Positions 257-13,059 are shown, counted from the stretch's first letter. The stretch is 13,093 nt of DNA from an uncultured archaeon (GCA_964447495.1 CAYUTF010000087.1:1-13093); one strand, 5' to 3'. Translations and numbers: made by a program. The notes: generated from the sequence alone by a model not told the origin.

Positions 257-1453
257 ATGATTAGCAAGAAGCAATTAAAAAATCTTTACGTTTTTATATC
301 TATTGTTTATAATAATATAGTGGTAGATAAAAAAGGAAAATTTAGGTTATTATCATATATAGTTGACACTAATTTAATTTTCTATAAAAGTGTTAATAGA
401 GAAAGCCGAATTATAGCTTTTACACTATTTCAATTATCTAAATATTATCCTGTTTCTAAAATTCTTCAAGATTTCCTTAGAAGCGGTCTAATATTTTTTT
501 ATTCGATTGAATTAAATATCGTTGCCCCTAATGATATCAAATATATATTATGTTTCACACATAATGATAAAAATAAGATTTTCAAAGATTTTAATTTAAT
601 AGCGGATAAGCTTTGCCAATTAGATAAATCAATAAAATTTTATCAAGATGACCAATTAGAAAGGGAATTCCTAAAAATTCTTTCCTTAAATAATAAGAAT
701 ATCACAATTAGAGATATTTTAGGTTCTTTAGTGTTAAAAAATGATTCTAAATTGATAACTCTTGACTTCTATTTAATAAATTATCATAAAAGCCCTAGAC
801 CTGATGAAGCAATTTATGAATTAATAAACTATATTGGTAGTTTAAAAAGAAATGGATTCTTTATTTTTAACTTCAGATTCATTAATAGCTATTTTGTTTC
901 AGAAGTTTATTATATTGATTTTATAAATGAAAAAAACATGGGAATTTCAAATTTAGAGTATGAAGTAAATAGCTTTTTTAATCTTGACTTAATATGTAAG
1001 TTTAGGATAAGTTTAAAACGAGCATTTTCTCCATTATGGCGCTACTCTCTAAGTAAATACCAAAATTCACTCAAAGATATATCTGAAGTATTAAATCTTG
1101 AATATTATTATAATTCTAAAAATATTATCATATTTAATGAAGAATTTATAAATCTTTTAAATGCTAATGGGATAAATTTTCATCAATTAAGTCAGAATTT
1201 ATTTTTTATAAATCAATCTATATTAGTTATAGTTTTAGCAACGAAGCGATTTAAGTATATATTAGATTTATTAAAGAAATATCAATCAAAATACATACTC
1301 TTGATAATTATACTAAATGATAAAGTCTATGATGATCTTATGAATATTAAAAATATTAATACGATTCCAAATCTAAAAATTATAAATTATGAAGATTTTT
1401 ATGAAATTGATTTGACCAGTTTAAAAGTAAATGAAAAATTAAAAGATACCTAA
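257..1453 (+). CDS. Hypothetical protein (398 aa; alpha/beta, apparently multidomain)
   Basis: A 1.2-kb open frame in very AT-rich DNA, where stop codons would otherwise be frequent. No recognisable catalytic motif. The start is uncertain (GTG at 320 is an in-frame alternative). The 3' end overlaps the 3' end of rpl23 by 15 nt. Confidence 0.75.
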   Translation: MISKKQLKNLYVFISIVYNNIVVDKKGKFRLLSYIVDTNLIFYKSVNRESRIIAFTLFQLSKYYPVSKILQDFLRSGLIFFYSIELNIVAPNDIKYILCFTHNDKNKIFKDFNLIADKLCQLDKSIKFYQDDQLEREFLKILSLNNKNITIRDILGSLVLKNDSKLITLDFYLINYHKSPRPDEAIYELINYIGSLKRNGFFIFNFRFINSYFVSEVYYIDFINEKNMGISNLEYEVNSFFNLDLICKFRISLKRAFSPLWRYSLSKYQNSLKDISEVLNLEYYYNSKNIIIFNEEFINLLNANGINFHQLSQNLFFINQSILVIVLATKRFKYILDLLKKYQSKYILLIIILNDKVYDDLMNIKNINTIPNLKIINYEDFYEIDLTSLKVNEKLKDT

Positions 1454-1702
1454 ATCAATGGCTATATCTTGAGCAGAATAATCTGGATGCAGTTTAACAA
1501 ACGCCTTCTTATCTCCTTTAGGTGTAATTTGAGTATTTACCTTTAAAACTTTAACATTATGAATTTTTTCAATAGCACGTCTGATCTGGCTCTTATTAGC
1601 CGATTTATCGACAATAAAAACTAATTTATTTTCTTGTTCAATTAAGTCAAAAGTTTTCTCGGTTATAAGTGGTTTTTTAATTATCTTGTAAATGCTTTCC
1701 AT
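1439..1702 (-). CDS. rpl23: 50S ribosomal protein uL23
   Basis: Motifs IIKKPLITEK, ENKLVFIVD..ANKSQIRRAIEK, V.KVNT.ITPKG.KKAFVKL; third gene of the L3-L4-L23 block. The ATG directly abuts the rpl4 stop (TAAATG). Confidence 0.97.
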   Translation of the reverse strand: MESIYKIIKKPLITEKTFDLIEQENKLVFIVDKSANKSQIRRAIEKIHNVKVLKVNTQITPKGDKKAFVKLHPDYSAQDIAIDLGIF

Positions 1703-2491
1703 TTAAAAAATCACCTCAAAATTATTTAATTCATCAAATGCAGATTGAGTCCATAATATTAATCTACCAGGTGAACCTCCTGGTGCTAAATTATTTATTG
1801 ACATCTTGTCACATTTAACGACTTCAATTCCCGGAATATTTCTTGTAGCTTTGATAATTCCAAAATCTTCTTTGATAATAAATAATACACCTTTCTTCTT
1901 CTTATACTTACGTCCCCTTCTTTTACCCTTACCTGCCCTAATCTTTTTTGAATTCTTTACATTGTTGACTTCATCAATTAATCCTAAATCAGAAAATATT
2001 TTAAACGCCGCAGATGTCTTTTTTACAGTTTGTATCTTATCATCAACAACAAGAGGTATCTCTGGTATATTGTCAATTATATGTCCTCGCTTCTTAACCC
2101 AATCAACATTTCCCGAAGCAGAGATTGCAGAAATTAAAGACAAAATATACGTTTTTCTATTAATTTTCTTTTTTATTACTTTATCTGTTTTTAATGGATG
2201 CGTACGACGACCTCCAACTGCAAAAGGTACTCTACCAACATTTCGGGCAGTAGAAAATCCCGATCCTTTAATTCTTGGTGCTCTAGACAAACCATGTCCC
2301 GTCCCCCAGCTCACTGCGGTGTTTCGTAAACCCGCTCTTTTATCCCTTCCTTGACGTTGTTTATTTCGACTCTCAAATACTTCACTTGCTTTTTGAATGA
2401 GGTCTTTACGAGGTTTTTGTATAAAAACCTTTGGAATTTCAATTAAACCCTTTTTTTTACCATCCAAACTGTAGATATTTACTTTTTCCAT
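1703..2491 (-). CDS. rpl4: 50S ribosomal protein uL4 (archaeal/eukaryotic type)
   Basis: Motifs TAVSWGTGHGLSRAPR, VGGRRTHP, IRAGKGKRRGR, NIPGIE, LAPGGSPGRLILWT. The ATG at 2491 (MEKVNIYSLDG) is preferred to the ORF-track GTG at 2503. Confidence 0.97.
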   Translation of the reverse strand: MEKVNIYSLDGKKKGLIEIPKVFIQKPRKDLIQKASEVFESRNKQRQGRDKRAGLRNTAVSWGTGHGLSRAPRIKGSGFSTARNVGRVPFAVGGRRTHPLKTDKVIKKKINRKTYILSLISAISASGNVDWVKKRGHIIDNIPEIPLVVDDKIQTVKKTSAAFKIFSDLGLIDEVNNVKNSKKIRAGKGKRRGRKYKKKKGVLFIIKEDFGIIKATRNIPGIEVVKCDKMSINNLAPGGSPGRLILWTQSAFDELNNFEVIF

Positions 2492-2512
2492 TTTATTATA
2501 CACTTATTTCTA

Positions 2513-3532
2513 CTATTTTCTTTGTTGACTTTCACGGCTAATAAATGTTATTTCTGGAACTGCTTCTATAAATGATTTTAATGGACGAATTGTTTTTCTA
2601 ATCCTCATTAATCTTTTTTTCGGTCCGGGAACAGATCCTAAAATAAGTAAATAATCCCCTTTAATCATGCCGTAACGGATGAAACCTCCTTTAGGATTTA
2701 TCTCTTCCTCATTTTCACCGATTAACATTATTCTTTTATGATATTCTGTTCTTTGGTGATATCCTAATTGACCTGGTCTTGGAACTGTATATAATACTCT
2801 AGCTGGATGCCAAGGACCTATACAAGCAACTGCTCTTTTAATCTTGCTATTTTTTCTGGGTAATAGTTTAATCCCAAACCTTTTTACGGGTCCTTGAAAT
2901 CCTTTTCCTTTACTAACAGCTACAATGTCAACTAATCCTCCTTGTGAGAGAACGTCGCGAGCTCTAATTTCTTTACCAAGATGTTCTAATACATAATTAA
3001 ATTCTTCAATCGGATTAGCCGTTGAGTTTAATTTTATTTCGATTATATCTGGTTTTTTTCTCGAAAGTGAAATCAAATAGGGTTGGGTTTGGAAAATGCC
3101 TCGTATTTCACTCTTATCATTTAAAATGTTAGTAAGAGATACTTTAACTTCTTCAAAATTATAATTTTCAATAATAGGAGTTGAGATTTTACGCTTTAAA
3201 TGGTTATTTAACTCTTTTGCATAGAGTTCTCCTTGGACATATCTCCCATATTCATCTTTGTTATAAACTCGGATACCTATAAGGTTTAATGGCGGAACTT
3301 CAATGATTGTTACTGGTTTCATTAATTCTTTTCCATAGTAAGGGCTATTCTTTTGATCTTCAATGTAGGTTATATGAGTCATACCTGCTTTAAATCCCGC
3401 AAAACCTAAGAAGTTAATCTCCTCGGAAGTATCTAACCAGTGTCTCACTCGACCTTTTTCTGATATTGCCCTTTTTCTAGGAAGAAATGCTAATGACCCA
3501 TGCCTTGGAGCGTGTTTTTTACGATGACCCAT
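2513..3532 (-). CDS. rpl3: 50S ribosomal protein uL3
   Basis: Motifs HAPRHGSLAFLPRKRA, FAGFKAGMTH, VSKGKGFQGPVKRFG, IGPWHPARV, GQLGYHQRTE, NPKGGF..YG, GSVPGPKKR. Confidence 0.98.
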   Translation of the reverse strand: MGHRKKHAPRHGSLAFLPRKRAISEKGRVRHWLDTSEEINFLGFAGFKAGMTHITYIEDQKNSPYYGKELMKPVTIIEVPPLNLIGIRVYNKDEYGRYVQGELYAKELNNHLKRKISTPIIENYNFEEVKVSLTNILNDKSEIRGIFQTQPYLISLSRKKPDIIEIKLNSTANPIEEFNYVLEHLGKEIRARDVLSQGGLVDIVAVSKGKGFQGPVKRFGIKLLPRKNSKIKRAVACIGPWHPARVLYTVPRPGQLGYHQRTEYHKRIMLIGENEEEINPKGGFIRYGMIKGDYLLILGSVPGPKKRLMRIRKTIRPLKSFIEAVPEITFISRESQQRK

Positions 3533-3664
3533 ATATAATCACTTATACTTTAAAACTTTAAATTATTCAAATTAAAAAAAGTTTTGTATTCAAATCCTAT
3601 TAGTTGTTGTAATTGAAAATAAAAAAATCGTTCTTTTTATTTTTTGATTTAAAATAGTTTTTAT
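3533..3664. promoter_or_regulatory. Divergent promoter region shared by the rpl3 operon and the pilus ATPase operon
   Basis: A 132-bp AT-rich gap between two head-to-head start codons (3532 -, 3665 +). Individual TATA/BRE boxes cannot be assigned reliably at this AT content. Confidence 0.6.
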
Positions 3665-5851
3665 ATGTCGTTAAAATTAAAAAACCTAACTCAATTTCAA
3701 GAAAAGGAAAATTTTGAAGGAAAAAAAGAGAAAACTTTAATTCTTAATTGCGATAATTGTATTGATAAAATTAATGAATCTATAGATTATGAGAAATGTT
3801 TTAGATGTTTTTTTAGGAATCTCTATATTAACCGAGCTCAAAATATTTCTTATATAAATATAAAAAGGTTTAATAACTCAATTGATAAAAAGAGTATAAA
3901 TAAATGCTTGGATTACTTCAAAATTTTAAGTAAATTAAAAAAAAATTTGCTGAAAATTGAGAGTTTTCATAAAAAGTATTGTCTTTACCAAGATTTTAAT
4001 TGTAAATTATTTAAAAAGGATGAGATTTTAGTCTCATTAAAACCTAATGATCTTTTTAATCCAATATTTTTTTATCTTAGTGTTAAAAAAAAATATTCTA
4101 CCTTAATCAATTCAATTATTGTCGATCCGATTTGTCAAAAATGTTCTTATAAGATAATGAAAACTTTAGAACTTATTTTAAGCGATCTAACTGATCTAAA
4201 TATTATCAAAGACCTAACAAGTTTTTCAAAACTAGATAAACATTTAGAAAATTCTCACAACTTCTATAAAAAATTCCTTTCTATTGACACCCCGCTAATT
4301 AATCAAGATAATAATATTCAATCTAATGAATCAATCCATACCAAAAGGTTAATTAGAATTTACAAAGTAGGAAAGTATGGATTATTTGATGTTCATATTT
4401 ATGATGTCCCATTTGAGTATGAAAAAAGATACTCAATAGAACTATTAATTGATAGAAATTTTGAAAATCATTATCAAAATAAAATGATTAGAAACGTTGC
4501 GGATAATATTAATCTTGTTGATATAGATGATAAAATACCCTTAGAGGCGTTAATAGAAACATATAAAGCTAAAGCAGTAGAATTTATAAGTACTAAGTAT
4601 AGTTTCAATCAATTAAAGGTTAAAAAAATTGCCTTCTTAGCAACACTTCAAAAAATCAAATTACTAAAGCTCTTTCCTCTTCTTGTTGATGATAATATCG
4701 AAGAAATCTTTTTGGATGCCCCTATAGATAGAATATATATTAATCATCAAGAGTTCGGGAGATGTAGGACAAACATTTTTTTTACTATGGACGAAATTGA
4801 TAGAATAAAAACATTTTTAAGACTATATAGTGGTAAGAGACTTGACTATTCAAATCCTTCGCTTAAATTCGTCTTAAAAAATAAATATTTTTATTGTAGA
4901 TTTGCTGTGGATATAGATCCAATCCATTCAAATAAGTTTGGAATGGATATTAGGAAATTGAATAAAAATATATTTAATATTCAAGATTTATTAAAAGTGG
5001 GGACTTTAAACCCGATGATGGCAGCATTTTTATATTTTTGTATTTTAAGAAGAATTAATATTACTGTTACAGGAGAAACTGACACTGGAAAAACTACACT
5101 AATAAATGCCTTAGATCTTATAGTACCAAAAGAATTTAGAAAAATTTATGTTGAAGATATAACAGAATCTTTAAACCAGTCGGCATTTGAGAGACATCAA
5201 TTAAAATTTAAAGTAGATTCAATAGAAAGCATGGTTGAAAAAAAATATTCTAAACAAAATCAGATTAAAAATTTGTTACATCGTACTCCTGATATTATTT
5301 ATTTAGGTGAAATCCTCACAAAAGAAGAAGCCGAAGCAATGTTTCATTGTTTAGCAGCGGGATTAAGAGGTTTTCAAACAATTCACTCAAAAGATTTGAA
5401 TTCCTTAATTAACCGTTTTATTTATCATTTCAATATTGACGGGTCATGTTTAAATGATCTAGATATAATAGTTCTAATGAAAAAAAGCCATTATGGTAGA
5501 AAAGTAATATCCATATCTGAAATATCAAACGACCCACTCAACTTAAATAATCTCCATAATATCTTATTTATCTTTAATCCTGAAACTCTTAGTTGGAAAA
5601 TACAATCCGACTTATTTAATTCGATTATAATTAGAAAATTAAAGGCAACAGAAAAGTTATCAAACGATAATTTTAATGAATTGCTTTCTATTTATCAAGA
5701 AATTTTTCTAATGCTTAGCAGGATGAATAAATTAACAAATCAAGAATTAATTGAATTCTTTGATAAAATAAATTACTTTTCTTTTAAATCTTATAATGCC
5801 TTAATAGATTATTGGCAAAATTGGAAAAAGAATAGAAGTTTAAATTTTTAA
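3665..5851 (+). CDS. Type II/IV secretion / type IV pilus assembly ATPase (VirB11/TadA/CpaF/FlaI family) with a long Cys-rich N-terminal extension
   Basis: PLLVDDNIEEIFLD (N-terminal traffic-ATPase motif), DIRK, Walker A GETDTGKT, Asp box YVEDITE, Walker B region RTPDIIYLGE, His box remnant TIHS, and RKVISISEI. Followed by pilin-like and platform genes. Confidence 0.92.
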   Translation: MSLKLKNLTQFQEKENFEGKKEKTLILNCDNCIDKINESIDYEKCFRCFFRNLYINRAQNISYINIKRFNNSIDKKSINKCLDYFKILSKLKKNLLKIESFHKKYCLYQDFNCKLFKKDEILVSLKPNDLFNPIFFYLSVKKKYSTLINSIIVDPICQKCSYKIMKTLELILSDLTDLNIIKDLTSFSKLDKHLENSHNFYKKFLSIDTPLINQDNNIQSNESIHTKRLIRIYKVGKYGLFDVHIYDVPFEYEKRYSIELLIDRNFENHYQNKMIRNVADNINLVDIDDKIPLEALIETYKAKAVEFISTKYSFNQLKVKKIAFLATLQKIKLLKLFPLLVDDNIEEIFLDAPIDRIYINHQEFGRCRTNIFFTMDEIDRIKTFLRLYSGKRLDYSNPSLKFVLKNKYFYCRFAVDIDPIHSNKFGMDIRKLNKNIFNIQDLLKVGTLNPMMAAFLYFCILRRINITVTGETDTGKTTLINALDLIVPKEFRKIYVEDITESLNQSAFERHQLKFKVDSIESMVEKKYSKQNQIKNLLHRTPDIIYLGEILTKEEAEAMFHCLAAGLRGFQTIHSKDLNSLINRFIYHFNIDGSCLNDLDIIVLMKKSHYGRKVISISEISNDPLNLNNLHNILFIFNPETLSWKIQSDLFNSIIIRKLKATEKLSNDNFNELLSIYQEIFLMLSRMNKLTNQELIEFFDKINYFSFKSYNALIDYWQNWKKNRSLNF

Positions 5852-5867
5852 ATTAAAAATTACATAC

Positions 5868-6281
5868 ATGACGAATTTAATTGAAAAAGCATTAATAATT
5901 GGATTTGGAATCTTTATAGCATCTATTTTTCTTTCATTTACTATGCCCTTTTTAGGGAAGATTATCTCGTATGATATTTATGTAGAGGATGATTTGAATG
6001 ATTATATTAAATTAATCGATGATGTGGATAAAGGTATAAAGTATATAATTGAAAATCCAAATAACATTTATCAGAAAGAAATTTTTTATCCTAATAATAT
6101 GAATATCACGATTGATAATTTTTATATCAATTTTAAATATATTATTAAAGAGGAATCTTCTCAAATTACTTTAAAATATAATAATACTTTAAAATCATAC
6201 TGTTTTTGCGAGATTTCACCAAAATATTATCTTTTTATAGTATGTTATGAGTTGAATTTAATAAAAGTTGAAATTTTTTAG
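5868..6281 (+). CDS. Type IV pilin-like protein (single N-terminal hydrophobic helix plus a small beta-rich domain)
   Basis: N-terminus M-TNLIEKALIIGFGIFIASIFLSFTMP has Glu at +5 after the Met and a hydrophobic helix. It lies between the ATPase (16-bp gap) and the platform gene (17-bp gap). Confidence 0.6.
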   Translation: MTNLIEKALIIGFGIFIASIFLSFTMPFLGKIISYDIYVEDDLNDYIKLIDDVDKGIKYIIENPNNIYQKEIFYPNNMNITIDNFYINFKYIIKEESSQITLKYNNTLKSYCFCEISPKYYLFIVCYELNLIKVEIF

Positions 6282-6298
6282 TTTTCCGATTTTGAATT

Positions 6299-7810
6299 AT
6301 GAAAATGCTCTCAAAATATATCTGGATATGTAATAAGCTTCATAATAAACCTCTGCCTAAATTTAAATTTAGAAATTTAAAAGATCGTTATAAACAAATT
6401 ATTCAAATAGAATATGAGGTTGATGAAGAGGATGTAAATAAAGCTACCTTTCTAATATTCTCTTTCACCTTTTTGATTGTTATCCTAATTTCATTATCAA
6501 TTAATCTTAATCTTGCATTTAGTACATTGATTTCATTAATTATTTCCTTCCTATTTTCCTATTTATTTAATAATTATTTATATAAGAAAATGTTTAAAAT
6601 TGAAGTAAGATTGAATGCTGTCCTTTATTTTATAAAGATTAATTACTCAATGATTAGGGAATCTCTGGAAAATAACTCTGATTTTATATTATCTTTTGTA
6701 AAATTAATAAAAAATTACAATTTACCAATTTCAAAAAATTTCGAATCTGTTCTGATAAAGATTCACGAGGGGGCTAATCCAGAAAGAGAATTAAGAAAAA
6801 TTGTAACCCCTTCTGCGGATTTTAATGATTATATGAAAAATTTATTGATTAGAACTCATTTGAATGAGAACCATTTCTATGAAGTTGATAATATGTTAGA
6901 ACGAAGATTTAAGGTATATTTGCGGCAAATAGAAACAAGAATGAGCCTTGTATTTTTTATTGGAGTTTTTTTTCCTTTAGGTTTATGTTTTTTAATAATG
7001 TTTTATAGGGATATCATTAATCTATCAATTTTCTTTGTTCCTATTTTTTTTTTAATTGTAAATTATTTATTTAAGGTATTAATAAAAAATGATACATTCC
7101 TCTTCGGACTTTTAAATGATTATAAAAAGGTAGAAAAAAGAAAATTTCTTGAATTTACATATTTTCTTAAAATTTTTGCACTTCATTTACAGGAGAATAT
7201 TTCACCAGAATCCGCTTTTATAAATGCATTTTCAACTAGTAGAAATCAATTAGAATTATTATGCGATCCAATCAAACATCAAATCTGTATGCTTTTAAAT
7301 CTATCATGTCCATTTGGAGATATAATTGATCTTTTAAAAATCCAAATGAAATCTGTGCGATACTATTTAATCTTGGATATAATAAAACATATTGTTATCA
7401 GTAACGCCTTTAATTCTTCTAAAAAGATATTTGGTATTTTAAAAATCATATCTAATCATCAAAAACTTGAAAAGAAATTAGAGACTGTTATGAAAGGGGA
7501 AAAATTTAAGGTTTTTATGTTCCTTTTTTTGCTACCTTTAATTATCGGAACAATAGGGGGGATGTTCCCAATTTTTACACTACTTGTGAATGTAAAAGAT
7601 GTAATTATCAATCAAAATTTAATTGCATTGATATTTTCAAGTGATTTCATAATAATTTTTATAACACTATTGATTTGCATTTTGATATCTTCATATTTTT
7701 TCCTTAAAACAATTAACTCATCGAGAATTTATGAGTGTTTAATTTTAATTTTTGTGATTTATACACTCTTATTCCTATTCTCTTTTTTTAATGCCTTCAA
7801 TTTCTTATAA
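6299..7810 (+). CDS. Type IV pilus membrane platform protein, TadB/TadC/FlaJ (T2SS-F) family, two-domain form
   Basis: Alternating TM hairpins and helical cytoplasmic domains, repeated twice (KIHEGANPEREL in the first half, LQENISPESAF in the second), ending in a multi-TM C-terminus. Downstream of a TadA-like ATPase. Confidence 0.8.
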   Translation: MKMLSKYIWICNKLHNKPLPKFKFRNLKDRYKQIIQIEYEVDEEDVNKATFLIFSFTFLIVILISLSINLNLAFSTLISLIISFLFSYLFNNYLYKKMFKIEVRLNAVLYFIKINYSMIRESLENNSDFILSFVKLIKNYNLPISKNFESVLIKIHEGANPERELRKIVTPSADFNDYMKNLLIRTHLNENHFYEVDNMLERRFKVYLRQIETRMSLVFFIGVFFPLGLCFLIMFYRDIINLSIFFVPIFFLIVNYLFKVLIKNDTFLFGLLNDYKKVEKRKFLEFTYFLKIFALHLQENISPESAFINAFSTSRNQLELLCDPIKHQICMLLNLSCPFGDIIDLLKIQMKSVRYYLILDIIKHIVISNAFNSSKKIFGILKIISNHQKLEKKLETVMKGEKFKVFMFLFLLPLIIGTIGGMFPIFTLLVNVKDVIINQNLIALIFSSDFIIIFITLLICILISSYFFLKTINSSRIYECLILIFVIYTLLFLFSFFNAFNFL

Positions 7811-7814
7811 TTAT

Positions 7815-8114
7815 TCAGGTAAAAAAAAATAGATAAATTATTTCTATAAACAAAAATATCCCTATTAAAAAATTAATCAAATTACAACAATAAGTAATTG
7901 AGCTGAGGAAAATATAGTCTGGTAAGCTCATTTTTTCTATGAAGCAAATCATAAATTCGATAATTTTAGAAAACGGTATTAATAATATTAAAAATATCAA
8001 AAAAGCCATAAATACTATTACTAAATCGTTTGAAATAGTTGAATAAATAAACAGAAACAAAAAAAAGCTCATAAAAGAAAATAGTTCAATTAACAATAAA
8101 CTTAATTCATACAT
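7815..8114 (-). CDS. Small hydrophobic membrane protein (about 3 TM helices), unknown function
   Basis: 99 aa, ATG start, almost entirely hydrophobic; fills the gap between the platform gene and the V4R gene. Confidence 0.6.
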   Translation of the reverse strand: MYELSLLLIELFSFMSFFLFLFIYSTISNDLVIVFMAFLIFLILLIPFSKIIEFMICFIEKMSLPDYIFLSSITYCCNLINFLIGIFLFIEIIYLFFFT

Positions 8115-8286
8115 TACTGTGAAGAAAATATTAAAAGAGTTATTTAAAGGTCTAAAATTTAAATGTATAAAAATTAGCTGATTAATAAAAATTTTAAATT
8201 TAATTATACAATAAAGTTAGTAAAGAACTGATTTTTTTATAAATTGGCATTAAAAATTAATATTTAAAAAAAGATAATTAATTAAT

Positions 8287-8775
8287 ATGAGAAATTTAAA
8301 ATTAAAAGGATTAAAATATAATAAGGGAAAATACGCTTTATATGATAATCGATTTATTTTTTTCCCTCCTCAGATAATTGATATACTTTCATCAATTTAT
8401 GGCGAGGGTGTTAAATCTTTATTAGTATGGCTAGGTAAAAAAGCAGGTTGGGCACTTATTCAAAATTGGGACGAGCATTTAAAATCAAAAACTATAAATG
8501 ACCTTGTAAGTCAATTTTGTAATATTTTAAGTAACCATGGATGGGGTAAATTTATAGCAAAGCAAATTTCTGAAGATTTAATCATTATTGAAATATATCA
8601 TAATGTATCTACTGTACTAGAAGGAAATTCCAAAAATGTTTGTTATTTCTTAACGGGTTTATTAACGGGTTTTGGAGAATATGTACTATACCGGGTAAAT
8701 GTCACAGAATCAGAATGTTCTATAAATAATTCCACCTTGGAATCTTGTAAATTTAAGATTGAAAAATTAGAGTAA
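8287..8775 (+). CDS. Stand-alone V4R (4-vinyl reductase; Bet3/TRAPP-related fold) domain protein
   Basis: Motifs LLVWLGKKAG, HGWGKF, CYFLTGLLTG, VTESEC and CKFKI give the V4R C...E.xC...C Zn-ligand pattern. Confidence 0.85.
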   Translation: MRNLKLKGLKYNKGKYALYDNRFIFFPPQIIDILSSIYGEGVKSLLVWLGKKAGWALIQNWDEHLKSKTINDLVSQFCNILSNHGWGKFIAKQISEDLIIIEIYHNVSTVLEGNSKNVCYFLTGLLTGFGEYVLYRVNVTESECSINNSTLESCKFKIEKLE

Positions 8776-8784
8776 AATATAAAT

Positions 8785-9174
8785 TTACCATGGGTCCCAT
8801 TCCTCAGGATTTAATTGGTTATCAGAATTCTTTTTTTCAAAGATATCTGAAGATTCAGAATTTTCAGTAAGTAAACTTTCTTTATATTCTTCTGGTTCTT
8901 TAATGTCTTCCTGTTGTTCTACGTTAATTTGGTCTTGCTCTGAAAAAATAGATTCATCTCCAATTACAACCTCTTTAAAAGCTGAGATCAACGAAAGAAA
9001 ATTAAAAAATTCCTCTTTGTTCATTTCTGTCATAATAGAACTATCATCTTTAAATAAAGTCAATTTAATTGCTCTGACTTCACCGCTAATTTCAACTGAT
9101 GTCAACTCAATATTCTCATTTTTTCTTTTTAACTGTATTTTCCAAGAAGTTTCTCTTGTTTTTTCAATTTCCAT
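8785..9174 (-). CDS. Hypothetical protein: small beta-beta-beta-beta-alpha domain plus an acidic disordered tail ending EEWDPW (possible PC4/PUR-like ssDNA-binding protein)
   Basis: Residues ~9-50 show alternating polar/hydrophobic beta patterns, followed by the helix MNKEEFFNFLSLISAFKEVV and ~55 residues rich in D/E/S/N. The function is inferred. Confidence 0.7.
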   Translation of the reverse strand: MEIEKTRETSWKIQLKRKNENIELTSVEISGEVRAIKLTLFKDDSSIMTEMNKEEFFNFLSLISAFKEVVIGDESIFSEQDQINVEQQEDIKEPEEYKESLLTENSESSDIFEKKNSDNQLNPEEWDPW

Positions 9175-9381
9175 GCTTATTAAATCTCATTTAAATTAAT
9201 TATAAATCACTAATCTTATAAAAATTAATAAATTTAAAATTTTATTTCTTAGGATATGAGATATAATATAAAAAAATATAAATAAATTATTTATTCAATT
9301 TTTTTATTCTAAATAGAATAAGATAATTTATCTCTAGAGCTTTCAAATCAATGTATATAGTAGCAATCTAATGGAATATCA

Positions 9382-10038
9382 TTATAAAAGTAATAAATAA
9401 TATACAATAATTATGATTATAATCAGTGGAGGTCTATATTGAGTTAAAATCTGTATTTTTTTGGTTTTATAATTAAAATATAAATCTAAACTCTTTATAT
9501 TATACTTATCACTAAAGGGAAAAAACAAATCTGAAATATTATAAAATTTATAAAAAGAAATTATATAAATTTGATAACTTTTTGAAATTTTTTTATTTGT
9601 CATAAAGAGTATTTTGAATGAAACTTTATTTTTGAAAAATTTATTAATCAAAAAATTGAAACCTGCAAAAAAAGAATAAAATATTAAAAACAAATTAAGA
9701 TATGAAAAAATTAGTGTAAAATTACTATAATTAATAGGAATTAGAAGAAATAATATTATTAGTAATTTCCCATCCGCCCCTCCTATAATTTTAAGGTTAA
9801 ATAAGAAGACAGAAATAATAAGAGTTAAAAATAGAATCAAAAATTTTGTTGTAAAAAATAGAATCAATGATTTAGAACTAAATACTAAATCTATAGAATT
9901 TATGGCAATTATTATAAACACAGTATATTTAAAGAAATAATTTGGGATTCTTCGAAATTTTATATCTAAATACAAACTGTAGAACATCAATATATTGATA
10001 ATAATGAAACTTAAAATAAATATTAAATAATTTATCAT
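9382..10038 (-). CDS. Prepilin/preflagellin peptidase, A24 family (PibD/FlaK/EppA-like GxGD aspartyl intramembrane protease)
   Basis: First catalytic Asp in SLYLDIKFRRIPN, second in IIGGADGKLL; multiple TM helices; the C-terminal QYRPPLIIII segment is like the archaeal PepC C-terminal tail. The in-frame ATG at 10038, 7 bp after the HTH stop, is preferred to the ORF-track TTG at 10065. Confidence 0.88.
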   Translation of the reverse strand: MINYLIFILSFIIINILMFYSLYLDIKFRRIPNYFFKYTVFIIIAINSIDLVFSSKSLILFFTTKFLILFLTLIISVFLFNLKIIGGADGKLLIILFLLIPINYSNFTLIFSYLNLFLIFYSFFAGFNFLINKFFKNKVSFKILFMTNKKISKSYQIYIISFYKFYNISDLFFPFSDKYNIKSLDLYFNYKTKKIQILTQYRPPLIIIIIIVYYLLLL

Positions 10039-10045
10039 ATTAAAA

Positions 10046-10333
10046 TTAATCTTCCCAAATTTCAATAAATCTCTTTAAGCTCTTTGCTTTTATATTTTCA
10101 ATTTTGTATCTAAATATTTTTATTCTCCCAAAATTCTTTTCTTGGACAAGATTTAACGATTTTAAATAATTAAGATGTTTACTAACACATGAATGATTTA
10201 AGTTTGTATTTTTAATGATTTGAGATATTGATTGTTCGAGATTTAAAGCTAAAACTTTTAATATTTTACTCCTAGCTTTTGATCCAAATAAATTTTCAAA
10301 TTTAAAGCAATCTCTTTCATTTTCTAAATTCAA
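10046..10333 (-). CDS. Winged helix-turn-helix transcriptional regulator (ArsR-like)
   Basis: LFGSKARSKILKVLA, SISQIIKNTNLNHSCVSKHLNYL (HTH), LVQEKNFGRIKIFRY (wing). The TTG start overlaps the cdc6 TGA stop (TTGA, 10330-10333). Confidence 0.88.
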   Translation of the reverse strand: MNLENERDCFKFENLFGSKARSKILKVLALNLEQSISQIIKNTNLNHSCVSKHLNYLKSLNLVQEKNFGRIKIFRYKIENIKAKSLKRFIEIWED

Positions 10334-11535
10334 GGCCTAATCCCTTTAGTTTTTAAAGTACTCATTATTAAATTTTCAAATTTTACTAACGGAATATCTT
10401 GAATTTCAATATAAGCTTTTCTTCCTTTTATCGCTTCACTTTTAATATTCAAAATGATTATATCTTCCTTTTCAAACTCCTTAAGATAGTTCCATAATTG
10501 TGAATAAGATCGTGCTTTCAATCCTAAATTCTCACAAAAAATATTATAGAGACTTAATATATCCGAAATTGAAATTTTTGATTTTTCGGTTTTCTTTAAA
10601 ATTTTAATAATACTTAACAAAAAGATTAATTTCTGAATAGATAAGTATCTTATAGCGTCTTGAGTTGAAAATGATATTAAATCTTGATTTCCAACTCTAA
10701 CACATTCTGAAGTTATATACTTTAAATTTCTACTTTCAGCAAATTTACTGGCTTTCCATAAAAGGTTTAAACCATATCTTATATCTCCCACTTTAAAAAC
10801 AGTATCAGATACCATCTCAATGATATCATCTGAGATTATATTTTCCTTTAAACTAATTCCTGCTCTATATTTCATAATATCAAATGTCTGCGCTTTTGTG
10901 TAGTTTTCAAATTTCAATATATTTCTCTGCAAGGTACTCATCGTACTAACATCTAAACTATTTATACATGAGATATCTCTAACTATCCCAATAATAGAAA
11001 TTCTTTGTTGTGCATTGACCATATCATCATTAATTCTAGTGAGAGAATAAATTAAGTCCCCTCCTTTATGAATTAAATAGCTAAACTCATCTAAAACTAT
11101 TAAAAGATGTATATCATGATTATTAAGATATTCTGTAAGAAATTCTAAAATATCCTGAGGAGAATAACCCCTTTTAGGGAAATTTTTATATAGTGAATGA
11201 ATAACTTTAATTATAACTTTATAATTAGTTCTTTCTTTTCTACAGTTAATGTGAACATATTTTATTTGAACATCTCTTTTACTTGAAGCCTCAACTAACA
11301 TATTTCCAAATAGCTTGACCGTCGCGGTTTTCCCTATACCTGTTTTACCAGTTATCAATATTTTTCTTGATATAGAATTTGGGTTAGTAATAAGTGTTAA
11401 GAATAATTGAGATAATATCGTAAGTTCTTTCTCTCTATGTGGCAATTCTTTAGGAACATAATTAATATCTAGTGCACTTTCATTAGCAAAAATAGAGGGC
11501 TTTTTTAATAAATTCTCAAAATAATCTGTAGTCAT
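10330..11535 (-). CDS. cdc6: Orc1/Cdc6 family AAA+ replication-initiator homolog, resembling the Orc1-2/Cdc6-2 clade
   Basis: YVPKELPHREKE, Walker A GKTGIGKT, YVHINC, Walker B LIVLDEF, sensor-2 GDIRYGL, and a C-terminal winged helix (YSQLWNYLKEF...KGRK). Confidence 0.95.
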   Translation of the reverse strand: MTTDYFENLLKKPSIFANESALDINYVPKELPHREKELTILSQLFLTLITNPNSISRKILITGKTGIGKTATVKLFGNMLVEASSKRDVQIKYVHINCRKERTNYKVIIKVIHSLYKNFPKRGYSPQDILEFLTEYLNNHDIHLLIVLDEFSYLIHKGGDLIYSLTRINDDMVNAQQRISIIGIVRDISCINSLDVSTMSTLQRNILKFENYTKAQTFDIMKYRAGISLKENIISDDIIEMVSDTVFKVGDIRYGLNLLWKASKFAESRNLKYITSECVRVGNQDLISFSTQDAIRYLSIQKLIFLLSIIKILKKTEKSKISISDILSLYNIFCENLGLKARSYSQLWNYLKEFEKEDIIILNIKSEAIKGRKAYIEIQDIPLVKFENLIMSTLKTKGIRP

Positions 11536-11673
11536 TGAAAATAACCGAAAAAATTAATATTAGAATTAAGATGCTTATTGTTTTTAATAGAATACAGAGT
11601 AAAAATTTTTCATTATAATTAATAAATAATTTATATTGAAGAACTAATAATTCCCTTTAAAATAATCTATTAA

Positions 11674-11690
11674 AATCTTTTTAAAAGATT
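11674..11690. promoter_or_regulatory. Perfect 8-1-8 inverted repeat AATCTTTT-T-AAAAGATT upstream of cdc6; candidate operator
   Basis: Arms at 11674-11681 and 11683-11690, in the 282-bp intergenic region about 140 bp upstream of the cdc6 ATG. The function is inferred. Confidence 0.35.
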
Positions 11691-11817
11691 ATTGAAATAT
11701 AGATATCTCAAAATAGAATCATATATTGATTATGTCGGTCAAGTTAATATAAGAAATGTATAAAAAATTCACTTAATTTTAAATTTACTATAAAATCGCC
11801 CTTCATTTAATAATTTA

Positions 11818-13059
11818 TCAAAATTTAAAGAATATTTCATTTACTTTTTTGAATCTTGGTTTCTTTTTCTTGTAATGATAAATATAATTTGCAATTACTA
11901 TTATAATAAAAACGCTACCCATTAAAATAACTAATAAGGAAATCAAGGAATTATAATTAGGAAGAGAAACCGTCAACATCTCGAAATTTAAAACTAAAAT
12001 TTTATAATTTAGTAATTTACTTCCATTGTAGACTAGTTGAAGATAAAATCTATAATCTTCTTGATTTATTTCATAAATTGGTGATGAAATGTTTATTTTT
12101 AAAAATCCGAAAGTGTCAATATTGAAAATTTTCTGGTATTTTATGCCAAGATTATCATAAATCATAACTCTTATGGGTTCATTTCTTAATGGGACAATTG
12201 ATTCGTTAAAATAATAAAAAAAAAGTTCTAATTCTATTTGTTCAGAACCTCTAAATTTGTTATTATACTTTAAGATGTCAATATATATAGGCGTCTTTTC
12301 TACTACTATTTCATAATAAAAAACAGTTCGATTGTAGATAATACCGTTTGAGACGTTAAAGATTAGTTTATTTATTCCAAGCCTCATATCATTAATAGAT
12401 GATAGATATAAGGAAATAATTCCATAATCATTTGAAGTATAGGTTTTTTGATAAATCATTGAATTATTTGACAAAATATAGAAATTAATATCATGTCCAC
12501 TTAAATTACTATTCGTATTATCGCTATAGAAATGAGCGTTAAACGATAAATTCTTACCAAGAATAACCTTTTCAGTAAAATTAAATAGCTCACAGGCTAA
12601 ATTTCTTTTAAAAATCGTTAGGTATAATGCTTCAAGAATTATTAGTTCCATATCCCCTCCATTAAATTCATTGAAATAAACTGCTTTAATAGAAATAATA
12701 TTTGAGTAGTAGTTAAAATTTAAATTAAGATTTCTTATGATAATAGTCCAATTTTCTTCAAAAACCCCCTTTCCATCAAATTCTGATGAATTCCAAAGTA
12801 ATGAATCCAATTCATCATAGATACGTATTTGAAAGTAAGGGTCATCATCTTCAACATAATCAAAATCCCAAGAAGCTTCAATTTCTATAACTTCATCCGC
12901 ATAATAGAAATCTTTATCCGTTCTTAAATATATTACTTGGCATATTAATGCTTTTGAAAATTGTCCACTAACCATAATTGATAAAAAAAGACATAATGCT
13001 ATGAAGAAAGTTTTTTTTCGTTTCACGTTATGTTTTTTAAATAATTTATAAAAACTCAT
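11818..13059 (-). CDS. Secreted, C-terminally membrane-anchored surface glycoprotein with about three Ig-like beta-sandwich repeats
   Basis: Basic N-region plus hydrophobic signal (KRKKTFFIALCLFLSIMVSGQFSKA); TDKDFYYADEVIEI domain start; two similar repeats (IYQKTYTSNDYGIISLYLSS / KYQKIFNIDTFGFLKINISS); C-terminal TM helix followed by KKKKPRFKK; 11 N-x-S/T sequons counted by eye. Confidence 0.8.
   Translation of the reverse strand: MSFYKLFKKHNVKRKKTFFIALCLFLSIMVSGQFSKALICQVIYLRTDKDFYYADEVIEIEASWDFDYVEDDDPYFQIRIYDELDSLLWNSSEFDGKGVFEENWTIIIRNLNLNFNYYSNIISIKAVYFNEFNGGDMELIILEALYLTIFKRNLACELFNFTEKVILGKNLSFNAHFYSDNTNSNLSGHDINFYILSNNSMIYQKTYTSNDYGIISLYLSSINDMRLGINKLIFNVSNGIIYNRTVFYYEIVVEKTPIYIDILKYNNKFRGSEQIELELFFYYFNESIVPLRNEPIRVMIYDNLGIKYQKIFNIDTFGFLKINISSPIYEINQEDYRFYLQLVYNGSKLLNYKILVLNFEMLTVSLPNYNSLISLLVILMGSVFIIIVIANYIYHYKKKKPRFKKVNEIFFKF

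Follow-up and report, generated by a model that had tools for sequence, protein, structure and literature searches.

What does an Orc1/Cdc6 gene do beside the genes of a type IV filament? The question is raised by the 13,093-nucleotide stretch of DNA analysed here (the window), which comes from a 98.4%-complete genome of the Promethearchaeota and has a GC content of about 19-35%, the genome as a whole averaging 31.3%. Positions 3665-11535 encode a FlaI/GspE-type ATPase, a pilin-like protein, a fused TadB/C-like platform and an A24 peptidase (Table 1), and this is the sole type-IV-filament-like (T4F) assembly set found in this Asgard, Lokiarchaeia-type genome. A spare copy of a replication initiator next to the only pilus-type machine, in an arrangement conserved in relatives, suggests a dedicated control circuit, and we give roughly even odds (about 0.5) to the reading that the locus is a dedicated regulator-plus-machine module. 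An earlier reading of the window made without database searches (hereafter, the sequence-only reading) had placed the DNA in a probable Asgard archaeon, and the named sources of homologues are indeed Promethearchaeota or Lokiarchaeota MAGs. It also supposed the module to be undescribed in Asgard archaea; our literature searches found no description of it, and two archaeal T4F censuses make no mention of Cdc6 or Orc1.

Table 1. Features of the window, with strand and the basis of each assignment.
Feature	Coordinates	Strand	Basis
hyp398, cytoplasmic, outside the span 3665-11535	257..1453	+	without known family
Putative divergent promoter region, rpl3/ATPase gene	3533..3664	.	alignment, 14 orthologous regions
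FlaI/GspE-family T4F-type secretion ATPase, 728 aa	3665..5851	+	PF00437
Pilin-like protein, 137 aa	5868..6281	+	short class-III-like signal peptide
Platform, fused TadB/TadC (GspF/PilC)-like polytopic membrane protein, 503 aa	6299..7810	+	fold and transitive sequence evidence
Small membrane protein, 99 aa	7815..8114	-	hydropathy
V4R-like protein, candidate small-molecule or redox sensor	8287..8775	+	PF02830, sub-threshold
Acidic protein, 129 aa	8785..9174	-	alignment of 14 sequences
Intergenic, end of cdc6 operon and putative conserved promoter block for acidic-protein gene	9175..9381	.	16 orthologous regions
A24 (class III signal/prepilin-type) aspartyl peptidase, third cistron	9382..10065	-	PF01478
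ArsR/SmtB-type winged-helix (wHTH) protein, 95 aa, second cistron	10046..10333	-	HTH_5, 33.8 bits
Orc1/Cdc6 paralogue, first cistron	10330..11535	-	TIGR02928
Region upstream of cdc6, 282 bp, with conserved promoter-proximal block	11536..11817	.	8 orthologous regions
hyp413, surface-anchored beta-sandwich-like protein	11818..13059	-	termini inspected

The core T4F parts and the other genes named by the sequence-only reading were borne out by Pfam and NCBIfam matches, fold comparisons and alignments. The ATPase scores 58.9 bits against PF00437 (cut-off 24.9), its best solved relatives being A. fulgidus GspE (2oap, 103 bits) and FlaI (4ii7, 90.7 bits), with CpaF at 41 bits, and it carries a Walker A motif (GETDTGKTT, residues 470-478). 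The genome's second PF00437 match is a PIN-PilT-like protein, which leaves the window ATPase as the sole one of T4F type; likewise, no other platform or peptidase of this kind was found in the genome. The single pilin-like gene found has no family match in a Pfam scan, but its product starts with MTNLxEK[A/S/V] and continues into a hydrophobic helix across 13 sequences, with M1, E6, K7, G14 and P27 invariant in all 13, and small ORFs resembling orthologues of this pilin adjoin the ATPase or platform gene in other Asgard families. The window platform had no match in a Pfam scan either, and is identified as such because of a fold match combined with a transitive link to T2SSF. In its AF2 model (pLDDT 77.8), residues 274-404 matched GspF/PilC-type cytoplasmic domains, which make up all of the top five among 48,161 chains compared with VIA-align, at Z 8.4-10.6, that is, below 13, a range where helical bundles may match by chance. 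The orthologues in other families are encoded by two split genes, and two of the eight scanned pass the Pfam T2SSF threshold (30.8 and 35.4 bits); hydropathy shows blocks of TM helices alternating with two soluble domains.

The peptidase belongs to a tight operon with cdc6 and the wHTH gene, not to that of the ATPase, as the sequence-only reading had observed. The cdc6 stop and the wHTH start overlap by 4 nt, an overlap found in 12 of 13 relatives, and the three genes are contiguous and on the same strand in 28 of the 36 peptidase-centred loci; the other eight comprise two loci at contig ends, one with a peptidase that only Pfam detects, four second loci that are duplicates and one locus of another family. 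When loci are anchored on the wHTH gene, cdc6 is directly upstream in 73/74 and the A24 gene directly downstream in 74/77 of those with room for it. Counterparts of the wHTH protein at 10 further Asgard loci, spread over seven families, are 40-47% identical to it, and 18 columns of the alignment are invariant. The peptidase, the genome's sole PF01478 match (33.7 bits; cut-off 26.5), likely starts at the ATG at 10038; its second Asp motif, GGxDxK, is invariant in 16/16 sequences, 15 of which also have the first Asp.

Assignment of the Cdc6 paralogue to a class bears directly on its possible role. The genome contains three Orc1/Cdc6 genes scoring over the cut-off, one of which is that of the window (TIGR02928, 254 bits; cut-off 181), with Walker A (GKTGIGKT) and Walker B (DEF) motifs in the translation. 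A separate, clear Orc1-1 orthologue is encoded elsewhere (312 bits to 2qby_A), and, judged by these scores, the window protein is not the Orc1-1 initiator. Against solved structures, it scores 169 bits with Pyrobaculum Cdc6 (1fnn), 125 with Orc1-1, 75 with ORC2 and 53 with Orc1-3, and a profile of 11 Asgard sequences of the group ranks the same four at 294, 253, 185 and 136 bits. The protein probably falls in the Orc1-2 cluster, because its nearest solved relative is Pyrobaculum Cdc6 and the Thermoproteales, as inferred from PMC3914693, kept only Orc1-2; the scores are proxies with a modest margin over Orc1-1. The Orc1-2 label of the sequence-only reading thus stands as far as the separation from Orc1-1 and the best match to 1fnn are concerned, but as a label it is just likely. 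In the same source, origins are reported not to coincide with Cdc6/Orc1-2. No ORB-like repeats were seen beside cdc6 in the window and five other Asgard loci, a weak test given that the Orc1-1 control showed none either, and a repeat search upstream of cdc6 yielded nothing over AT-rich noise.

The linkage of cdc6 to the pilus machine is more than chance. Gene order is kept in 16/16 loci of relatives, whose proteins are 28-83% identical, the gaps corresponding to contig ends or to the poorly conserved 99-aa gene. Across the phylum, 16 of 36 ATPase-centred loci, representing 7 families, have this Cdc6 orthologue (scores above 250 bits) and the wHTH gene 0.8-6.7 kb from the ATPase gene; in the remaining 20, the pair is not within about 10 kb. 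The clustering of regulator-like and machinery genes proposed by the sequence-only reading, which had called for a neighbourhood comparison across Asgard genomes, is therefore present in relatives well beyond the genus, and survives rearrangement in other families. A divergent TFB paralogue (NF001658, 65.5 bits, versus 433 bits for the canonical TFB) also recurs in this setting: it is inside the fetched stretch in 28/36 phylum-level ATPase loci, a count that includes the six loci that supplied the model, often directly upstream of the ATPase gene, and in 27/36 class-level loci, about 1 kb past hyp413 in those checked. The sequence-only reading had foreseen neither the phylum-wide linkage with this paralogue nor the nearness to Orc1-1 described below.

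Under one alternative, Cdc6 and the wHTH protein act as a replication or chromatin factor without a regulatory link, and the T4F genes, ribosomal genes and TFB paralogue merely share an ancient, seldom broken neighbourhood near the origin. The surroundings lend this some substance: the neighbours include rpl3-rpl4-rpl23 as well as EF-2, RpoG-like, tRNA pseudouridine synthase and FtsZ genes, the Cdc6-group profile still gives 253 bits on Orc1-1, and in 4/4 single-contig genomes the module lies 10-192 kb from Orc1-1 (163, 192, 17.5 and 149 kb, the third measured from cdc6 and 10.6 kb from the ATPase gene), or 1.2-4.4% of genome length. Given this proximity and the housekeeping neighbours, some of the loose linkage may reflect conserved synteny near the origin. 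However, synteny alone leaves unexplained the overlapping cdc6-wHTH-peptidase cistrons; the persistence of the module in genus g14 (L083, L084), where the ribosomal genes have moved away; and the re-assembly in the sister family f2, where two peptidase-centred loci (L093, L094) have six co-directional genes in the order cdc6-wHTH-A24-ATPase-pilin-platform and two ATPase-centred ones (L131, L140) have cdc6-wHTH about 0.8 kb from the ATPase gene. Nor does it account for second copies of the module in three genera, with paralogues of the peptidase, the platform and hyp398, two of the four (L077, L085) also with a Cdc6 paralogue of their own. Taken with the separate, much better Orc1-1 orthologue and, for what the weak test is worth, the lack of ORB-like repeats seen beside cdc6, these observations make origin-proximal synteny an unlikely account of the locus.

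Several further genes lie around and between the two units. hyp398 had no match in Pfam and NCBIfam scans and no usable one in the ESM Atlas; its 11 homologues all lack Pfam domains, the few named sources being Lokiarchaeota/Promethearchaeota MAGs, and it accompanies the platform gene where the module is duplicated, adjoining the platform paralogue in L077, L079, L085 and L089. hyp413, conserved beside the cdc6 operon, carries a Sec-type signal at the N-terminus and, at the C-terminus, a TM helix with a basic tail; its orthologues show weak MG4 and PITM beta-sandwich matches, and larger counterparts (599-970 aa) are located between cdc6-wHTH and the ATPase gene in other Asgard families. The small membrane protein was detected by tblastn at this position in 8/16 loci of the genus and by HMM in other genera. 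The V4R-like protein, about 70% identical within the genus, matches PF02830 below threshold (18.5 bits; cut-off 31), as do 3/3 orthologues. Together with the wHTH protein it resembles a split MsvR: against the NCBIfam MsvR model, the former scores 30.8 bits on the V4R half and the latter 27.8 on the HTH half, both far under the cut-off of 220. Among the intergenic regions, that between rpl3 and the ATPase gene contains the conserved blocks TAATCACTT, TAAATT and TAAAAAAAGTTT and may act as a promoter, and the block TCAAT.A.TTAATAAAAATTAAC.AATTTAAAATT could be the promoter of the acidic-protein gene. No motif common to the promoters of the module was identified, the conserved blocks differing from one another.

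The acidic protein, which the sequence-only reading took for a possible ssDNA-binding protein, has an N-domain of four strands plus a helix (AF2 pLDDT 73-91 over residues 1-70), joined by an acidic linker to a C-terminal peptide, LNPEEWDPW, that is invariant. Weak but convergent leads suggest a PUR/PC4-like fold, of the type that binds single-stranded nucleic acid: VIA-align ranked four Pur-alpha repeats (Z 6.6-6.8) first among 48,161 chains, Foldseek returned nothing at E<=0.001 but Pur-alpha rows with probability 0.96-1.00, and the ESM Atlas lead is DUF3276 (score 0.77). Of the 69 relatives retrieved by a profile search, 38 were scanned, all without a PUR match in Pfam. The earlier suggestion thus retains a fold lead, but one that is weak (Z<8) and lacks a sequence link.

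These features also recall subclade 4D of the Thermoproteales, for which Makarova et al. (2016) describe an ATPase whose additional N-terminal domain bears conserved cysteines, together with a TadC-like protein that has diverged, an operon that includes a TFIIB homologue, and RPB8 close by; pilins are lacking, and the authors suggest a role related to transcription. By analogy, the window could encode a repurposed T4F-derived machine that, instead of building a pilus, takes part in a process tied to DNA or transcription, such as the movement or retention of nucleic acid at the membrane, with Cdc6, the wHTH protein, the acidic protein and TFB as working parts, not regulators. The window ATPase likewise has a cysteine-rich N-terminal domain (~270 aa), in which cysteines 29, 32, 45, 48, 106, 113, 157 and 160 are invariant in 10/10 sequences. 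The TFB paralogue is linked to the ATPase gene phylum-wide and preceded by an RpoG-like gene in 3 loci of one family, the acidic protein has, besides its fold lead, an acidic tail of SSB style whose tip is invariant, and ATPase homologues in 228/251 Asgard genomes (E<=1e-10) represent a near-universality unusual for an accessory pilus. By contrast, the ATPase operon includes the gene of a pilin-like protein whose class-III-like signal peptide is conserved, and the module has kept an A24 peptidase with apparently intact catalytic motifs, pointing to a substrate that is processed and a mechanism of filament type. Moreover, the platform is recognizably of GspF/PilC type, unlike the 4-5-TM TadC-like protein of 4D, the PUR-like leads are weak, and ComEC was not found in the genome. 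We therefore consider such a repurposed machine quite unlikely.

We favour a dedicated regulator-plus-machine module, in which the Cdc6 paralogue and the wHTH protein would be DNA-binding transcription regulators devoted to the T4F machine. The peptidase, predicted to be co-transcribed with them, would cut the signal peptide of the pilin-like protein, so that maturation of the substrate would be tied to expression of the regulators. The product would be a filament or other surface assembly, and the control module may be joined by the V4R protein, which could sense a ligand or redox state, and by the divergent TFB paralogue that in relatives is encoded shortly beyond the end of the window.

A regulatory precedent comes from Sulfolobales, in which Orc1-2 is reported to be a non-initiator that binds promoters of the ups and ced genes (PMC6061795), these being described as under Orc1-2 and TFB3 control (PMC6061795, PMC6101594, PMC6101591). 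The locus could accordingly be read as a counterpart of that system, a DNA-damage-inducible pilus for aggregation, DNA exchange or transformation: both an Orc1-2-like paralogue and a divergent TFB paralogue are physically linked to the T4F set, a possible single-stranded nucleic-acid-binding protein lies within it, and the genome search for ComEC and DprA suggested by the sequence-only reading, although negative for ComEC, found a DprA-like gene elsewhere (128.5 bits). Nothing in the sequence points to DNA damage, however, the ANTTTC element being uninformative in DNA of about 23% GC; near-universal ATPase homologues and the housekeeping setting are more in keeping with a constitutive role than with one confined to stress, and the V4R/MsvR-like pair suggests that the signal may instead be a small molecule or redox state. 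Damage-induced DNA exchange is thus highly doubtful as the function. For the dedicated module, the Sulfolobales system would be a model at the level of mechanism: the window Cdc6 paralogue would work at target promoters as Orc1-2 does there, and the TFB paralogue would have company among archaeal T4P loci, in which TFIIB homologues are given as the commonest predicted regulators (PMC4858521).

The window comprises the entire contig C87 of a 3.81 Mb genome that is assembled into 223 contigs and is rated 98.4% complete. The homologues of its genes (see table) come from MAGs named Promethearchaeota or Lokiarchaeota, and the earlier assignment to a probable Asgard archaeon therefore stands. The sequencing runs listed for this stretch are 14 DNA and no RNA runs, all 14 labelled as salt marsh metagenome, and one of them may be the source sample. 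The GC content is 31.3% in the genome and 19–35%, mostly 19–27%, in the window, where values of 32–35% are reached in the ribosomal genes only.

Genes of the window with their coordinates, strand and the evidence for each assignment
Gene or product	Position	Strand	Evidence
hyp398	257-1453	+	no family
rpl23-rpl4-rpl3	1439-3532	-	Pfam ribosomal families
Secretion ATPase, 728 aa	3665-5851	+	PF00437, 58.9 bits (cut-off 24.9)
Pilin-like protein, 137 aa	5868-6281	+	conserved N-terminus
Polytopic membrane protein (predicted platform), 503 aa	6299-7810	+	fold and transitive links
Membrane protein, 99 aa	7815-8114	-	hydropathy
V4R-like protein	8287-8775	+	PF02830, sub-threshold
Acidic protein, 129 aa	8785-9174	-	fold lead
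A24 peptidase	9382-10065	-	PF01478, 33.7 bits (cut-off 26.5)
ArsR-type wHTH	10046-10333	-	HTH_5, 33.8 bits
Orc1/Cdc6	10330-11535	-	TIGR02928, 254 bits
Surface-anchored protein	11818-13059	-	termini inspected

Archaeal ribosomal clusters usually continue with rpl2 or rps19 after rpl23. Here, the rpl3-rpl4-rpl23 block ends at rpl23 and is followed, in all loci of the genus, by the unrelated hyp398 gene on the opposite strand. The hyp398 product has no match in Pfam, NCBIfam or the ESM Atlas, and its homologues are domain-free and come from the same lineage only.

Archaeal type IV filaments (T4F) are built by a FlaI/PilB-type ATPase, a TadC/FlaJ platform, pilins with class III signal peptides and a PibD/FlaK-type A24 peptidase. 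The best structurally solved relatives of the ATPase in the window are A. fulgidus GspE (2oap, 103 bits) and FlaI (4ii7, 90.7 bits), with CpaF reaching 41 bits, and its Walker A, Walker B and His box motifs are conserved in all ten sequences compared. An extra domain occupies the first ~270 residues, and eight of its cysteines, all within residues 29-160, are invariant across the ten sequences (10/10). Derivation of this domain from the TFB paralogue, a divergent TFIIB homologue encoded near the ATPase in relatives, was considered and rejected, as hhalign aligned only 24 columns (CxxC..CxxC) with a probability of 1.4%.

For the platform, a direct Pfam search returned no T2SSF (PF00482) match in the window or elsewhere in the genome, only one of 13 orthologues touched this family (E 0.025), and a profile search against PDB sequences retrieved nothing relevant. 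The AlphaFold model (pLDDT 77.8) likewise yielded nothing at E ≤ 0.001 in the Foldseek ‘pdb’ database, with a PilC model at rank 35. Structural comparison with VIA-align against 48,161 chains placed SpoIIIAB, the PilC N-domain, the PilC model, EpsF and TcpE in the top five positions (Z 8.4–10.6, rmsd 2.7–3.6 Å over 97–124 residues, within model residues 274-404), each alignment spanning nearly the whole target domain. At Z below 13, helical bundles can match by chance, but the fact that the five top hits are all family-specific (GspF/PilC-type) argues against this explanation. In other Asgard families, platform orthologues matching the genus-level HMM are split into two genes, of ~280 and ~240 aa; T2SSF was recovered at E ≤ 0.001 in three of the eight split proteins scanned and above the cut-off in two of the eight (30.8 and 35.4 bits). 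Given that the fold matches and the independent sequence evidence agree, we accept the 503-aa protein as a predicted fused TadB/C-like platform.

In all 13 sequences, the 137-aa protein starts with MTNLxEK[A/S/V] and continues as a hydrophobic helix, an N-terminus that we take, by a motif rule, to be a class-III-like signal. It has no Pfam match, and PF04021 is matched nowhere in the genome; because of this lack of a family match, we infer, rather than assign, a role as a pilin-like substrate. No further pilin-like gene was found. A crude genome scan for class-III-like N-termini yielded 12 unconvincing candidates and is unusable as a substrate count, because its hydrophobicity threshold missed the pilin-like protein of the window itself. 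In the A24 peptidase, the second catalytic Asp, that of the GGxDxK motif, is invariant (16/16 sequences) and the first is present in 15 of the 16. The genome encodes no second A24 peptidase and no archaellin, and HMMs for the module components found no paralogues. The only further PF00437 match in the genome is a PIN-domain plus PilT-like ATPase (G000:C3:38108-39778, equivalent to L010:721-2391), the gene for which sits between those for a tRNA-splicing endonuclease and Sir2.

Within the genus, the gene order is kept in 16 of 16 loci at protein identities of 28–83%. As conservation at this level could be plain collinearity, we widened the sample to the class, in which PF01478 is matched in 79 of 151 genomes. 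The cdc6, wHTH and A24 genes are contiguous and on one strand in 28 of 36 peptidase-centred loci; the other eight include two contig ends, four duplicated second loci, one locus from another family and one (L094) in which the peptidase, seen by Pfam only, sits between the wHTH and ATPase genes. In 12 of 13 loci, the end of cdc6 shares 4 nt with the start of the wHTH gene. Conserved blocks also mark the intergenic regions at 3533-3664, 8115-8286, 9175-9381 and 11536-11817. In a set of 80 wHTH-anchored loci, which overlaps the peptidase-centred sample, cdc6 is directly upstream in 73 of the 74 loci with room for it and the A24 gene directly downstream in 74 of 77; among the loci of at least 19 kb (n = 45), 41 carry the ATPase and platform genes, and 43 the V4R, acidic-protein and TFB-like genes.

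The module has also withstood rearrangement. For instance, in one family (f2; peptidase-centred loci L093 and L094), the genes follow one another in the order cdc6-wHTH-A24-ATPase-pilin-platform and are all co-directional, and in genus g14 the module is intact, with the ribosomal genes elsewhere. In three genera (g12, g15 and g17), the module is duplicated, the second copies (L077, L079, L085 and L089) having paralogues of the peptidase, platform and hyp398 and, in two of the four cases (L077 and L085), also a Cdc6 paralogue. Pieces of pilin-like and ATPase genes are additionally found in L085 and L089, and L079, L085 and L089 encode a protein of ~900 aa that has TM helices at the N-terminus and a zinc ribbon at the C-terminus. 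The sequence-only reading had described pilus components next to a cdc6-wHTH-peptidase unit and proposed that they form a module of regulator and machinery; gene families, copy number and the order conserved in Lokiarchaeia and other Asgard genomes bear out the observation, and the module, with its regulator-like genes, is real and conserved.

The A24 gene occupies two overlapping frames in 31 of the 80 wHTH-anchored loci (L173-L252). The break is located within a poly-T run, always at the same point of the protein (K-[I/F]-FFFF), and the second piece has an identical frame offset in all 27 cases measured. One catalytic Asp is present in each half. The longest T-run in the split genes ranges from T7 to T17, with a mode of T13; intact genes mostly have shorter runs, that of the window being T7. 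Either the MAG assemblies under-call the homopolymer, or expression of the peptidase is phase-variable and depends on slippage.

Beyond the class, ATPase homologues, some of which may be other FlaI-type paralogues, are found at E ≤ 1e-10 in 228 of 251 Asgard genomes. We sampled 36 ATPase-centred loci from 35 genomes in 17 families. The same Cdc6 orthologue (over 250 bits with the genus HMM) and the wHTH are encoded 0.8–6.7 kb from the ATPase in 16 of these loci, from seven families, whereas in 20 the Cdc6-wHTH pair lies outside the fetched stretch. The divergent TFB paralogue is present within the fetched stretch in 28 of the 36 loci, six of which served to build its model, and its gene is often directly upstream of, or overlaps, that of the ATPase. 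At the class level, the paralogue is encoded in 27 of 36 loci, ~1 kb past the surface-protein gene in those checked. In the source genome, its gene lies on contig C130 (C130:5121-6137; L147:1471-2487), which probably abuts the window. The paralogue scores 65.5 bits on the TFB model NF001658, versus 433 bits for the canonical TFB.

The TFB paralogue is conserved across Asgard families (loci L127-L170). Its neighbour on C130 encodes a zinc-ribbon protein of 132 aa (Auto_anti-p27, 58 bits). In a single Asgard family (L145:7260-7661, L146:7225-7626 and L170:12624-12989), the TFB paralogue is immediately preceded by an RpoG (Rpb8)-like gene, echoing the RPB8 gene of the thermoproteal loci known as subclade 4D.

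The Cdc6 paralogue of the window has the Orc1/Cdc6 architecture of AAA+ domain, lid and C-terminal winged helix, with matches to Cdc6_lid, Cdc6_C and AAA_22, and is one of three Orc1/Cdc6 proteins above the cut-off in the genome. Another of the three, encoded on contig C15, is clearly Orc1-1, with 312 bits against its S. solfataricus counterpart. The paralogue of the window scores 169 bits against Pyrobaculum Cdc6 (1fnn), 125 against Orc1-1, 75 against A. pernix ORC2 and 53 against Orc1-3, and a profile of 11 Asgard orthologues gives the same order (294, 253, 185 and 136 bits, respectively). In the account of Raymann et al. (2014, PMC3914693), Thermoproteales are inferred to have lost Orc1-1, and Orc1-2 is described as not coincident with origins. 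On the basis of that loss, we place 1fnn in the Orc1-2 cluster. The paralogue of the window probably belongs to this cluster as well; the Orc1-2 label proposed from sequence is thus retained as likely, through scores used as proxies (1fnn over Orc1-1) combined with the inference from the literature.

In Sulfolobales, Orc1-2 activates DNA-damage-responsive promoters via an ANTTTC element. This hexamer is uninformative at ~23% GC, where chance matches abound. The genome was also searched for the competence genes ComEC and DprA: a DprA-like gene is present elsewhere, but nothing in the genome, 98.4% complete, matches ComEC (PF03772), the channel of competence-type DNA uptake. Of the DNA-damage and DNA-exchange system envisaged in the sequence-only reading, the DprA-like gene would speak for uptake and the lack of a ComEC match against it, and a specific DNA-damage circuit, which would follow by analogy with Sulfolobales, appears very unlikely.

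Conserved synteny near a replication origin would offer a different account of the linkage. The module lies 10–192 kb from the Orc1-1 orthologue, or 1–4% of genome length, in all four single-contig genomes, and its neighbourhood includes ribosomal, EF-2, RpoG-like and FtsZ genes; the proximity to Orc1-1 and these housekeeping neighbours favour origin-proximal synteny as a partial explanation of the loose, kb-scale linkage. The overlapping operon, the six-gene cluster and the module duplications are left unexplained by such synteny, which we regard as an unlikely explanation of the locus. The individual distances are 163 kb in G038, 192 kb in G032, 17.5 kb in G152 and 149 kb in G186 (1.2–4.4% of genome length). 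The search for ORB-like repeat families upstream of cdc6 was negative both in the window and in five further Asgard loci. As the control loci, those of Orc1-1 and the third paralogue, yielded no such repeats either, this repeat-based test is uninformative here.

The remaining members of the locus offer hints as to its inputs and partners. MsvR, a redox-sensing regulator of methanogens, combines an ArsR-type wHTH and a V4R domain. The wHTH of the window resembles its N-terminal half (27.8 bits) and the V4R-like protein its C-terminal half (30.8 bits), both far below the family cut-off of 220; furthermore, MsvR is one fused protein, whereas the two genes here belong to different transcription units. 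The resemblance hints that the pair may respond to a ligand or redox signal.

PUR-alpha, PC4 and Whirly-type proteins bind single-stranded nucleic acids. In its predicted structure, the N-domain of the acidic protein is a confident four-strand-plus-helix repeat of ~70 residues, and Pur-alpha repeats occupy the top four positions in VIA-align against 48,161 chains (Z 6.6–6.8). Foldseek returned nothing at E ≤ 0.001, the Pur-alpha rows having probabilities of 0.96–1.00 with E-values above 0.1, and the ESM Atlas gave DUF3276 as a lead (score 0.77). A profile search of 1.84 billion representatives retrieved 69 relatives, none of the 38 scanned matching an informative family, PUR of Pfam included. 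The repeat resembles that of PUR-alpha in the predicted model, without a sequence-level link; the variable acidic linker and the C-terminal peptide LNPEEWDPW that follows it, invariant in 14 of 14 sequences, are not PUR features. The tail looks like a docking peptide for a protein partner.

We put at about one half the probability that the Cdc6 paralogue and the wHTH, perhaps together with the V4R-like protein and the TFB paralogue, constitute a dedicated control module for the one T4F-type machine that the genome was found to encode. A bolder version, which we consider speculative and unlikely, is that an ancestral and near-universal, T4F-derived machine is hard-wired in Asgard archaea to an Orc1-2-type Cdc6, a wHTH and a divergent TFB, as a physically clustered counterpart of the Orc1-2/TFB3-Ups/Ced circuit of Sulfolobales, and that in Lokiarchaeia the signal peptidase is in addition co-translated with the Cdc6 paralogue. 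In the literature searched, as far as its accessible text goes, non-initiator roles of archaeal Orc1/Cdc6 are shown in Sulfolobales only; if true, a conserved physical link in Asgard archaea between a surface machine and an Orc1/Cdc6 paralogue of this kind would be a second, independent case, and would define a concrete regulon for testing in the few cultured strains.

At the level of its genes, the locus resembles archaeal T4F systems in the family of its ATPase, in the GspF/PilC-type domain predicted for its platform, in an A24 peptidase that has both Asp motifs and in a small protein whose short charged N-terminus precedes a hydrophobic helix. It differs in the ~270-aa, cysteine-bearing N-domain of the ATPase, in a platform without a Pfam match, in the single pilin-like gene found and in that the operon of the peptidase also encodes an Orc1/Cdc6 paralogue. 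The main text of a 2026 census (PMC13705601) describes core T4F components as only rarely neighbours in Asgard genomes and reports 17 Asgard genomes with components specific to subclade 4D. For the class studied here, the ordered and conserved locus revises this picture of scattered components. The literature searched contains no description of a Cdc6-wHTH unit at a T4F locus, and Cdc6/Orc1 is mentioned in the main text of neither this census nor the survey that describes subclade 4D (PMC4858521), although the supplements of both may already depict the locus.

In Sulfolobales, Orc1-2 has been established as a non-initiator regulator of the ups and ced promoters (Sun et al., 2018, PMC6061795). 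Common to both cases is a paralogue distinct from Orc1-1 that is genetically associated with a T4F system. However, the link in Sulfolobales is regulatory and not physical as described in the main text of that study, the orc1-2 flanks being shown in a supplementary figure, whereas here the gene shares one operon with those for the wHTH and the peptidase.

The subclade 4D systems of Thermoproteales (Pyrobaculum-Thermoproteus), as described in the main text of Makarova et al. (2016, PMC4858521), combine an ATPase with a small cysteine-bearing N-domain, a diverged TadC-like protein with 4-5 TM segments, unlike TadC, and a TFIIB homologue in the operon. Their loci have RPB8 close by and lack both pilins and secreted proteins; a transcription-related role was suggested for these systems. 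Likened by this description, the Asgard locus shares the cysteine-bearing N-domain, albeit of ~270 aa, and the linkage of a TFIIB homologue, here outside the window, to ATPase and membrane-protein genes, as well as, in one Asgard family, a nearby RPB8/RpoG-like gene. By contrast, the Asgard locus encodes a pilin-like and a surface-anchored protein, the platform has 503 aa and a GspF/PilC-type domain, and the A24 peptidase, Cdc6 paralogue and wHTH have no counterparts in subclade 4D as described. The common features would be compatible with a repurposed 4D-like machine linked to DNA or transcription, which in view of these differences we consider quite unlikely, and we retain the dedicated control of a T4F-type machine as the preferred reading. 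Through the divergent TFB that is paired with the ATPase across the phylum, the Asgard system is tied to the 4D systems, themselves unexplained, which raises the question of whether this branch of T4F serves something besides adhesion or motility. Overall, the locus shares features with T4F systems, with the Orc1-2 circuit and with subclade 4D, and is a full member of none of the three.
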